From NCBI RefSeq assembly GCF_003334815.1, contig NZ_QOWO01000007.1: 64,000 nucleotides of DNA. One strand, given 5' to 3'. Below are positions 616-2,573 of the stretch, one piece after another. The notes under the pieces are model-generated. The model worked only from the letters and a program-made list of their open reading frames with translations, did not search any database and had not been told where the DNA came from. Source of the DNA: Escherichia coli. Lineage in GTDB: Bacteria > Pseudomonadota > Gammaproteobacteria > Enterobacterales > Enterobacteriaceae. Numbering within the stretch: position 1 is the stretch's first letter; each line of letters starts with the position of its first letter. Made by a program: the position numbers and the translations under genes.

Positions 616-1536
616 TTACAGAGTTTCCTCAAAGAACGGAGCTAATACTGAAATTGCTTCAGCCACATAGGCTTTGCCGTCATAAAGATCCATATGGTTT
701 GCGCCTTCAACAATGTGATAGCGTTTATCCTGGCTTGATGCTCGATCGTACAGGTCGTCACTCATCCATTTGCTCCCTGCCTGGCTGCCCGCCACAATCT
801 GCGTCGGCTGAGTCAGGTACACTTCCGCCATATGGTAAGCATCATAGGTAATAATCTGGTTAAGGCTGCGCAAAGTAGCGTAACCCGGTGCTGTTGGATA
901 CTGCGCGCGAGGGGTGTGGTAATACTCCCAGGCCTGACGCAGTTCTTCGTTCGGCGCATCGGACTCCTTCATTGGTGCCAGTGGCATAATGGCGTATTCT
1001 CCGCTGCTAATATCGCTGGTTCTGGCGTTTGAACCCGCTTCAACGTATGGCAGGGCATCAATAGATTTCACATTGTTTTCCCAACCATTACGGAATATCG
1101 AACCAATATTGACCGCACTAACGGTACCGATGGCCTTGATGCGGCGATCCTGAATTGCAGCATTGGCTGTATATCCTGCACCGGCACAAATTCCCATCGC
1201 ACCAATTCGGGTATTGTCGACATAAGAAAGCGTTGTCAGGTAATCAATCACGGCACTGATGTCTTCAGTACGAATGTATGGGTTTTCTAACTGACGCGGC
1301 TCGCCGCCACTTTCACCTTGATAAGATGCGTCATAAGCAATAGTGACAAATCCCTTTTCCGCCAGTTTTTTGGCATAGGTTCCGGCCGTTTGTTCTTTAA
1401 CGCCCCCACCTGGGTGAGATAACACAATTGCCTGATACTGACGGGTTTCATCAAATTTTGGAGGGAAATAGATCACTGCAGACAAAGAGATGGTTGGATT
1501 ATTGCTGTTAGTGAAGCTGACTTTATTATTCATCAT
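616..1536 (-). CDS. ycjY: dienelactone-hydrolase-like alpha/beta hydrolase (Cys nucleophile)
   Basis: ORF track 616..1548; motif AMGICAGAG (GxCxG); start moved to second Met cluster preceded by GAGGAA. Confidence 0.85.
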   Translation of the reverse strand: MMNNKVSFTNSNNPTISLSAVIYFPPKFDETRQYQAIVLSHPGGGVKEQTAGTYAKKLAEKGFVTIAYDASYQGESGGEPRQLENPYIRTEDISAVIDYLTTLSYVDNTRIGAMGICAGAGYTANAAIQDRRIKAIGTVSAVNIGSIFRNGWENNVKSIDALPYVEAGSNARTSDISSGEYAIMPLAPMKESDAPNEELRQAWEYYHTPRAQYPTAPGYATLRSLNQIITYDAYHMAEVYLTQPTQIVAGSQAGSKWMSDDLYDRASSQDKRYHIVEGANHMDLYDGKAYVAEAISVLAPFFEETL

Positions 1537-1673
1537 TCCGTTCCTCATGGAGTTGTCGGTTCGTTTTAACGGTTGGTGATATCACTATAGATATTGATCA
1601 TTAAGTTGATTAGACCCAAAATCATGATTAGACCTATCATTTAAATGATTAATAGATTGCATGGAGATACTGA

Positions 1674-2573
1674 ATGAAGCGTGAAGAAATCGCTGATCTG
1701 ATGGCGTTTGTCGTCGTTGCAGAGGAGCGTAGCTTCACTCGTGCAGCAGCCCGCCTGAGCATGGCGCAGTCAGCTTTAAGCCAGATAGTGCGTCGTATAG
1801 AAGAACGATTGGGATTGCGGCTTCTGACGCGAACCACGCGCAGCGTTGTTCCAACTGAAGCGGGCGAGCATCTTTTGTCTGTTCTTGGCCCTATGTTGCA
1901 TGACATAGATTCAGCCATGGCATCCCTGAGCGATCTGCAGAACCGCCCATCCGGGACAATACGTATTACTACTGTAGAACATGCAGCAAAAACGATATTG
2001 TTACCAGCAATGCGCACATTCCTGAAATCGCATCCTGAAATTGATATTCAGCTCACCATTGATTATGGTTTGACCGATGTCGTTTCTGAACGTTTTGATG
2101 CAGGCGTCCGTCTGGGTGGGGAGATGGATAAAGATATGATCGCCATTCGAATCGGGCCAGATATACCAATGGCTATTGTTGGCTCACCGGATTATTTTTC
2201 TCGCCGAAGTGTTCCAACGTCAGTGTCACAATTAATAGATCATCAGGCAATTAATTTGTATCTTCCCACATCGGGTACAGCAAATCGCTGGAGATTAATA
2301 CGCGGTGGACGTGAAGTTCGTGTTCGCATGGAAGGTCAGCTTTTACTGAATACGATAGACCTGATCATTGATGCTGCAATTGATGGGCATGGATTGGCGT
2401 ATCTACCTTATGATCAGGTTGAGCGGGCTATTAAAGAAAAAAAACTGATACGTGTTTTGGATAAATTCACACCAGATTTACCCGGTTATCACCTGTACTA
2501 TCCACACCGTCGACATGCTGGCTCGGCATTCTCATTATTTATAGATAGGCTGAAGTATAAAGGTGCTGTTTAG
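1674..2573 (+). CDS. ycjZ: LysR-family transcriptional regulator
   Basis: 299 aa; N-terminal HTH ...SFTRAAARLSMAQSALSQIVRRIEERLG; divergent from ycjY. Confidence 0.85.
   Translation: MKREEIADLMAFVVVAEERSFTRAAARLSMAQSALSQIVRRIEERLGLRLLTRTTRSVVPTEAGEHLLSVLGPMLHDIDSAMASLSDLQNRPSGTIRITTVEHAAKTILLPAMRTFLKSHPEIDIQLTIDYGLTDVVSERFDAGVRLGGEMDKDMIAIRIGPDIPMAIVGSPDYFSRRSVPTSVSQLIDHQAINLYLPTSGTANRWRLIRGGREVRVRMEGQLLLNTIDLIIDAAIDGHGLAYLPYDQVERAIKEKKLIRVLDKFTPDLPGYHLYYPHRRHAGSAFSLFIDRLKYKGAV

Follow-up and report, generated by a model that had tools for sequence, protein, structure and literature searches.

YcjY of Escherichia coli carries alanine at the canonical position of the catalytic acid and is encoded, with PgrR, in the remnant of a four-gene cassette

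Introduction

What kind of enzyme is YcjY of Escherichia coli, and how did its gene come to lie, back to back with that of a LysR-type regulator, between mpaA and mppA, both genes of cell-wall recycling? The pair, ycjY and pgrR (= ycjZ), occupies positions 616–2573 of the 64,000-nucleotide (nt) stretch analysed here (NCBI RefSeq assembly GCF_003334815.1, contig NZ_QOWO01000007.1), which we call the window and which over positions 1–4600 is 100% identical to E. coli K-12 MG1655. A first-pass annotation, made from the letters alone, took YcjY to be a dienelactone-hydrolase-type enzyme with a Cys-His-Asp triad and the two genes to be an inducer-responsive catabolic pair without an evident substrate.

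Much about the pair is already on record. YcjZ has been characterised as PgrR, a crystal structure of YcjY has been deposited (PDB 5XB6), and its GXCXG motif was earlier used to propose a possible short-chain polyhydroxybutyrate (cPHB) polymerase (cited in PMC3709699). As first stated, the object is thus already known, since both K-12 genes have names, the structure of YcjY has been solved, its motif has appeared in print and the regulator has been characterised. In the literature searched, no paper citing 5XB6 was found, nor any published function for YcjY or for Pseudomonas aeruginosa PA2218 (PDB 2HDW). Three points are added here: the canonical position of the triad Asp is not acidic; the two genes are half of a mobile cassette of four, for which E. 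coli has an empty, an intact and a degraded allele; and their peptidoglycan setting is of secondary importance.

A cysteine and a histidine in the YcjY active site

The ycjY gene (616–1536, minus strand) encodes an alpha/beta-fold enzyme of 306 aa, whose numbering is used throughout; the longest open reading frame (ORF) extends to 1548 and 310 aa. Residues 115–119 read G-I-C-A-G, in the context R-I-G-A-M-G-I-C-A-G-A-G-Y. In the AlphaFold model (predicted local distance difference test score 97.7), which superposes on 5XB6 at 0.6–0.7 Å, Cys117 (codon 1186–1188) stands between strand 106–116 and helix 118–129, that is, in the nucleophile elbow. The placement of GICAG at the nucleophile position was therefore correctly called in the first-pass annotation.

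An exhaustive search of 1.84 billion cluster representatives yielded 4593 relatives of YcjY, and conservation was counted in 77 full-length representatives with 31–60% identity. Loss of the cysteine among orthologues had been named beforehand as a result that would overturn the reading. Instead, GAMGICAG was present in 117 of the 120 closest database homologues, and position 117 was Cys in 71 of the 77 diverged representatives, the remainder having Ser (2), Ala (2) or Gly (2). Apart from one Gly variant, these exceptions keep the conserved His. An occasional natural exchange of Cys for Ser is as expected for the position of a catalytic nucleophile. His281 (codon 694–696) is kept in 72/77 homologues and follows strand 271–276 of the model, i.e. 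it comes after the last core strand, where the catalytic-His loop of the alpha/beta-hydrolase fold is found.

Other positions are conserved as well. Lys47-Glu48-Gln49, Arg81, Arg132, Arg172, Tyr205, Tyr206 and Tyr285 are each at least 87% conserved among the 77 representatives, and in alignment A2 the same set reaches 90% except for Arg81. A lid of about 100 residues (140–240 in the model) carries the nearly invariant Arg172, Tyr205 and Tyr206.

The canonical acid position is alanine

In alpha/beta hydrolases, strand beta7 ends in a Gly and the catalytic acid is the third residue beyond it, and in the dienelactone hydrolase ClcD the triad Asp is Asp171, after beta7. The corresponding strand of YcjY (245–250) runs into the loop G250-S-Q-A253-G-S, which places Ala253 (codon 778–780) at the canonical acid position. 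In a profile alignment anchored on H-G, Ala253 stands opposite the Asp of the Ser-hydrolase homologues 9PJB (H-G-D-S-D) and 7D78. Position 253 is Ala in 60/77 homologues, and the equivalent stretch of PA2218 reads G-E-R-A-H-S. The positions next to it vary, and no conserved acid was found across the post-beta7 loop of the 77 homologues. Strand beta6 is not followed by an acid either.

The proposed Cys-His-Asp triad thus stood for Cys117 and His281 and failed for the Asp. On sequence evidence, the YcjY family has a conserved Cys-His pair without a canonical acid, and for want of the triad Asp the active site of YcjY would effectively be that pair. Since the canonical position is Ala, YcjY is not suited to annotation or modelling as a Cys-His-Asp dienelactone hydrolase.

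Family placement and nearest relatives

No Pfam family covers the whole protein. Peptidase_S15, DLH, Abhydrolase_1, PETase, Hydrolase_4 and Peptidase_S9 all match weakly, and all but Abhydrolase_1 are confined to the N-terminal core. The DLH family (PF01738) matches the largest share of YcjY-family members, 63/75 with a best E value of 2.4e-12, and never strongly; for YcjY itself the match covers model positions 11–123 of 217 (E 3.5e-7, 30.5 bits), and Peptidase_S15, Abhydrolase_1 and PETase match it about as well. Judged by the features of that family (PF01738, EC 3.1.1.45), YcjY has the Cys nucleophile, but neither a full-length match nor the Cys-His-Asp triad, Ala253 or Gln252 standing where the Asp would be. 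BAAT_C matches weakly in 14/75 members.

Among solved structures PA2218 is the nearest, followed by DcsB, a Chloroflexus hydrolase and GrgF; dienelactone hydrolases have lower scores. Identity to GrgF and DcsB is only 17–19%, and a profile of the C-terminal part of YcjY alone matches GrgF only at E 0.69. The best NCBIfam match is to the UilS family (NF047920), at 86.5 bits for the N-terminal half of YcjY and 77.4 bits over the full length of the paralogous hydrolase 2 described below.

A four-gene cassette in unrelated bacteria

Outside Escherichia, the closest relatives of YcjY (81–84% identity) are found in Rhizobium, Agrobacterium, Sphingobium, Burkholderia and Pluralibacter, and hydrolase 1 on Klebsiella plasmids is about 91% identical to it. 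The genes around these relatives show that ycjY and pgrR are the remnant half of a four-gene cassette that encodes a LysR regulator, Cys-hydrolase 1 (YcjY), Cys-hydrolase 2 and an NmrA-type reductase. Klebsiella plasmids, Rhizobium, Sphingobium and Burkholderia all have versions of the cassette, with protein identities of 70–91%. What had been read as the layout of a catabolic pair is therefore what is left of a larger unit.

The divergent LysR gene precedes hydrolase 1 in every locus examined, and hydrolase 2 comes next in all but one. The same order is seen in Pluralibacter, Rhizobium, Sphingobium, Burkholderia and one metagenomic contig; at another metagenomic locus, the second position is taken by an unassigned ORF. 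The LysR proteins of Pluralibacter, Rhizobium, Sphingobium and Burkholderia are 70–79% identical to PgrR, and their hydrolase 1 proteins 82–84% identical to YcjY. Hydrolase 2 is 39–41% identical to YcjY and has its own G-[IV]-C-G-G motif. Some loci also contain the oxidoreductase (211–212 aa), of the NmrA or short-chain dehydrogenase/reductase (SDR) type, whose remnant in the window is ymjC. Its full-length form (locus L091, 7872–8510) matches a solved and apparently uncharacterised Shigella flexneri structure, 3QVO (E 4.6e-118), and is distantly related to the ChuY/ShuY reductases; the ymjC remnant has 54% aa identity to an NmrA-like protein of Rhizobium.

Several copies lie on mobile DNA. 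The Rhizobium tropici module, with IS21-family and integrase genes on its two sides, is carried by a plasmid of 216 kb, that of Sphingobium adjoins an integrase gene, and the Klebsiella variicola cassette is on a conjugative IncF plasmid. Within the contexts examined, the cassette was accompanied by no catechol dioxygenase, cycloisomerase or maleylacetate reductase gene and by no gene for an acyl-carrier protein, polyketide synthase, CoA ligase or acyl-CoA enzyme; no murein genes travel with it in Rhizobium, Sphingobium, Burkholderia or the Klebsiella plasmids.

More distant members of the YcjY family (48–60% identity), on short contigs (loci L093 and L094), have as neighbours a nitroreductase gene in one setting and genes for an AraC regulator and a short-chain dehydrogenase in the other. 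These neighbourhoods are suggestive, in a small sample, of detoxification modules, and they recall the cassette's combination of hydrolase, small reductase and regulator.

Insertion into the mpaA–mppA spacer

In the window, the cassette remnant is enclosed by a direct repeat of 42 nt whose copies, at 370–411 on the mpaA side and 2816–2857 on the mppA side, are 83% identical, as the first-pass annotation had indicated in placing the pair inside a repeat. About 37 nt of this is true duplication, homology in the first copy extending to ~407. The repeat is the duplicated target of the insertion, taken from the mpaA–mppA intergenic region. By the MG1655 annotation in window coordinates, mpaA (minus strand) ends at 281 and mppA (plus strand) occupies 2910–4523.

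To represent the site before insertion, window positions 1–411 were joined to 2858–3300 and the resulting synthetic sequence was compared with 5426 complete E. coli genomes. It was matched in a single piece by 173 of them, at 97–99.4% identity. In a sample of other species, both mpaA and mppA were located in 73 loci, and in 70 of these they were direct divergent neighbours with a spacer of 139–317 bp, mostly ~183–190 bp; E. albertii, E. whittamii, Citrobacter, Enterobacter, Klebsiella, Kluyvera and Kosakonia are among them. The three exceptions were an Escherichia sp., which carries this cassette, and two Salmonella, in which the insert is a different one. In E. albertii, E. whittamii, Citrobacter and Enterobacter, the empty-site spacer contains the repeat once and is colinear with the window at either junction. 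No terminal inverted repeats or transposon signatures were found at the ends of the E. coli cassette. From these data, the cassette was acquired by horizontal transfer and inserted in the mpaA–mppA spacer of an E. coli ancestor, with duplication of about 40 bp of target.

The spacer itself (window 282–411 and 2816–2909) has some features of its own. Salmonella enterica subsp. arizonae and diarizonae carry in it a different insert of 3.1–3.4 kb (loci L028 and L030), which in arizonae (L028) contains a gene for cytolethal distending toxin subunit B (NF011787, 378.9 bits) flanked by two lipoprotein-like ORFs; insertions thus seem to favour this region. Within the duplicated target lies GGAAGTT(G/A)TTTGCATTT, of which the GAAG and TTGCATTT cores are invariant in all seven aligned sequences, including the Citrobacter and Enterobacter empty sites, and a promoter-like TTTGCA-18-AATAAT site lies at 2844–2873. 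The duplicated target probably serves the divergent promoters of mpaA and mppA as a common regulatory element.

Between pgrR and the second repeat copy, an AT-rich 3′ flank of the insert (2574–2815) has no homology to the cassette of the Klebsiella plasmid. In an O111:H8 genome, RefSeq marks within this stretch (window 2671–2763) a 31-codon fragment of the epoxyqueuosine reductase QueH. Translation of the equivalent window stretch in one frame of the minus strand did not confirm it; the fragment could be a trace of the donor context. Further downstream, between ynaI and ynaJ (5606–5848), IS5 is absent from the window but present in the MG1655 record, so that the window does not derive from that record, its full identity over 1–4600 notwithstanding.

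Three alleles in E. coli and selection on the remaining genes

The intact order, pgrR, ycjY, hydrolase 2 and SDR, was found in ~1270 E. coli genomes. The O111:H8 strain (locus L092), the one genome of this type in which the site was examined, has the intact cassette at the same mpaA–mppA position, flanked by the same repeat with its copies 4008 bp apart. Window positions 3000–559 align with 2117–4558 of L092, in which the hydrolase 2 gene starts at 4501. The K-12-type allele of the window equals the intact locus minus 4559–5450 (892 bp, hydrolase 2) and 5590–6271 (682 bp), the latter deletion having removed the 3′ part of the SDR gene together with its flank.

Two stubs mark these losses. The 57 nt at 559–615 (minus strand) are the 5′ end of the hydrolase 2 gene, and the ymjC pseudogene (407–545, minus strand) is the first 139 nt of the NmrA/SDR-type oxidoreductase gene, annotated in RefSeq as a partial ‘NAD-dependent dehydratase’ (408–545). 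The ymjC remnant matches the 5′ end of the SDR gene in L092, where that gene is intact, at 99.3% nt identity, and the SDR gene of the Klebsiella plasmid at 77.6%. Alignment with the Klebsiella plasmid runs 51 nt into its hydrolase 2 gene and gives the same picture of deletion. Of the four cassette genes, only those for the LysR regulator and hydrolase 1 are intact in the window.

E. coli therefore has three alleles: empty (173 genomes), intact (~1270) and, in most of the remainder, the K-12 type with two deletions. Strain C8 has an additional copy of the cassette, 93.7% identical to the Klebsiella plasmid version. When the window was compared with the Escherichia sp. locus that has the same mpaA–mppA spacing, the ratio of non-synonymous to synonymous substitution rates (dN/dS) was 0.18 for ycjY and 0.12 for pgrR. 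By this sequence measure, both genes are under purifying selection within Escherichia.

PgrR and the divergent spacer

The first-pass annotation had identified the partner as a LysR regulator, and this is borne out. The pgrR product (1674–2573, plus strand; 299 aa; PgrR in RefSeq) has the domain pair of the type, HTH_1 at residues 7–65 (E 2.8e-21) and LysR_substrate at residues 90–294 (E 5.1e-35), together with the expected length of ~300 aa, a divergent target, a dyad in the spacer and negative autoregulation. The divergent ORFs themselves, 616–1548 on the minus strand (310 aa) and 1674–2573 on the plus strand (299 aa), were also as first described. The 125-bp spacer (1549–1673) applies only if the longest ycjY ORF is taken. 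A start at 1536 or 1533 is favoured by RefSeq, the 5XB6 construct and the N-termini of orthologues, giving a spacer of 137–140 bp (1537–1673 with the former), and a ribosome-profiling paper likewise places the ycjY start differently from older annotations.

This divergent promoter and operator spacer contains a perfect dyad, ATCATTTAAATGAT, at 1636–1649 and two copies of GTCTAATCA on the minus strand, at 1607–1615 and 1625–1633. The dyad and the GTCTAATCA copies are kept in the LysR–hydrolase spacers of Pluralibacter, Rhizobium, Sphingobium and Burkholderia, in which the flanking sequence is not conserved. These elements coincide with a promoter-like site at 1611–1640 and overlap the ycjY and pgrR promoter hexamers listed in PMC3946193; the dyad overlaps the −10 element of pgrR and the −35 element of ycjY. 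Overlap with both promoters fits the reported repression and autorepression. From its conservation and its position over the promoters, we infer that the dyad at 1636–1649 is the binding site of PgrR.

YcjZ was renamed PgrR after genomic SELEX (systematic evolution of ligands by exponential enrichment; Shimada et al. 2013, Genes Cells 18:123). Binding in the ycjY/ycjZ spacer is reported, and the regulon is given as ycjY-ymjD-ymjC-mpaA, ycjG and ycjXF-tyrR. Negative autoregulation of pgrR was confirmed by promoter profiling with CRISPR interference (PMC10505187). A scan of the minus strand between ycjY and mpaA found no terminator-like site.

Discussion

Taken together, we favour an account in which YcjY is a cytoplasmic thiol enzyme, PgrR its cognate LysR regulator, and the two genes what remains of a horizontally acquired and degraded cassette; as a whole, this seems to us reasonably probable, though well short of certain. 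YcjY would most likely be an alpha/beta-fold enzyme of the cytoplasm in which Cys117, activated by His281, attacks the carbonyl of an ester, lactone or thioester to form a covalent thioester intermediate. The lid with its nearly invariant Arg172, Tyr205 and Tyr206 suggests a specific small anionic substrate. This may most plausibly be a lactone or ester, a class pointed to by the lactonase-family relatives, by the small NAD(P)H oxidoreductase partners and by hosts that are largely soil and plant bacteria. PgrR, as the cassette's own regulator, would shut both promoters by binding the dyad and would leave it when an inducer binds. The K-12-type allele later lost hydrolase 2 and most of the reductase by the two deletions. 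The reported control of mpaA by PgrR would then be a by-product of the landing site, through read-through from the ycjY promoter.

Several observations weigh against parts of this account. No enzymatic assay of YcjY or a close homologue was found in the literature searched, and the papers that mention ycjY contain no biochemistry. In one alternative alignment with 7QJM the Asp moves one residue later, to position 254, which is Asp in 23/77 homologues but Gly in YcjY and its sampled orthologues. A non-canonical acid, such as Asp283 (Asp or Glu in 62/77) or Glu48, might contact His281. Activation of the divergent gene is the usual mode of a LysR-type regulator, but PgrR is described in the literature as a repressor. 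The proposed operator is drawn from conservation and promoter overlap, and read-through into mpaA from the missing terminator motif. In the intact cassette, too, no terminator-like site follows the SDR gene on the coding strand (fold z-score −0.98). The idea that a terminator at the end of the SDR gene had insulated mpaA, so that co-transcription of ycjY and mpaA in K-12 would be an effect of the deletion, was dropped when no convincing terminator was found. Finally, overexpression of ycjY gives filamentous cells, which might point to a substrate in the cell envelope.

That phenotype is also among the points in favour of a role of YcjY as a peptidoglycan-peptide hydrolase or peptidase, recycling murein tripeptides with MpaA, MppA and YcjG. 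The reported co-regulation and co-transcription with mpaA under PgrR, weak Pfam matches to Peptidase_S15 and Peptidase_S9, and a 2025 paper that lists YcjY under ‘(putative) peptidoglycan degradation’ all agree with it. However, it is specifically in E. coli that ycjY lies next to mpaA, as a result of the insertion; mpaA and mppA are direct neighbours in 70/73 other loci and in 173 E. coli genomes, and a neighbourhood created in this way is no evidence that YcjY acts on murein peptides. The cassette travels without murein genes in four other settings (Rhizobium, Sphingobium, Burkholderia and Klebsiella plasmids), and the peptidase matches are limited to the generic N-terminal core; a murein role appears unlikely to us. 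Slightly less so is an acyltransferase or condensing enzyme resembling GrgF, PHA synthase or BAAT, a reading that includes the old prediction of a short-chain PHB polymerase. Cys-nucleophile alpha/beta enzymes are often transferases (PhaC, BAAT). GrgF and DcsB are among the nearest solved structures, GrgF catalyses a Claisen-type chain fusion, the GXCXG-based cPHB polymerase prediction is on record, and BAAT_C is matched, if weakly, in 14/75 members. Against these stand the identity of only 17–19% to GrgF and DcsB, a cassette without acyl-carrier protein, polyketide synthase, CoA ligase or acyl-CoA genes, and recurrent partners, small NAD(P)H oxidoreductases and one-component regulators, that are more typical of detoxification or catabolism.

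In K-12-type genomes ycjY might instead be a functionless relic of a pathway broken by losses, with too little time for the gene to decay. This allele has lost two of the cassette's three enzymes, and the literature searched gave no phenotype for a ycjY deletion. Such a relic would hardly be expected to show dN/dS of 0.18 beside 0.12 for its regulator, or an intact ORF with Cys117 and His281 in thousands of genomes, and the protein is soluble enough for crystallisation; we regard this as improbable. Least probable of all, in our view, is a true dienelactone hydrolase (carboxymethylenebutenolidase) with a Cys-His-Asp triad, forming an inducer-responsive aromatic or lactone catabolic pair with a LysR activator. 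The elbow Cys as in ClcD-type enzymes, DLH matches in 63/75 members and the divergent LysR layout suggested it. Ala253 at the canonical Asp position, the loop without a conserved acid, the partial model match (11–123 of 217, E 3.5e-7), the lid of ~100 residues and cassette contexts without catechol dioxygenase, cycloisomerase or maleylacetate reductase genes argue otherwise.

We offer a wider reading tentatively; with all its parts taken together, it is rather doubtful. The YcjY/PA2218 family would be a distinct Cys-His thiol class in which Asp is replaced by Ala. Two paralogous Cys enzymes, an NmrA-type reductase and the LysR regulator would make up an inducible pathway, so far undescribed, for a lactone- or ester-type compound from plants or soil, and most E. 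coli would express their murein-tripeptide amidase under a foreign regulator, the peptidoglycan role of PgrR being an evolutionary accident. For work on K-12, the link between YcjY and peptidoglycan recycling is one of gene adjacency arising from horizontal insertion, and is uninformative about the substrate. The K-12 allele being degraded, strains with the intact cassette (O111:H8) or the Klebsiella plasmids are likelier to yield inducer and substrate.

Comparison with known systems

YcjY shares with ClcD-type dienelactone hydrolases the alpha/beta fold, the elbow Cys, the conserved His and a weak Pfam match, and differs in having no Asp at the canonical position, a large lid and only a partial model match. 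Compact dienelactone hydrolases lack the lid of ~100 residues, and they are structurally less similar to YcjY than DcsB and GrgF are. DcsB (7D78/7D79), unlike YcjY, has a Ser in G-M-S-F-G-G and an Asp at the canonical position. DcsB and GrgF (6LZH), the latter called a cysteine hydrolase in a preprint, are fungal trans-acting enzymes that work on carrier-protein-bound polyketides within biosynthetic clusters, whereas the bacterial cassette has no such genes. UilS of Serratia is a characterised acyl-homoserine lactonase with an alpha/beta fold (PMC11633161); the cut-off of its family is 400 bits, and YcjY and hydrolase 2 fall far under it, so that YcjY is not a member. PgrR, for its part, is known in the literature as a regulator of peptidoglycan recycling, whereas here it proves to be the cognate regulator of a mobile hydrolase and reductase cassette found in many unrelated bacteria.

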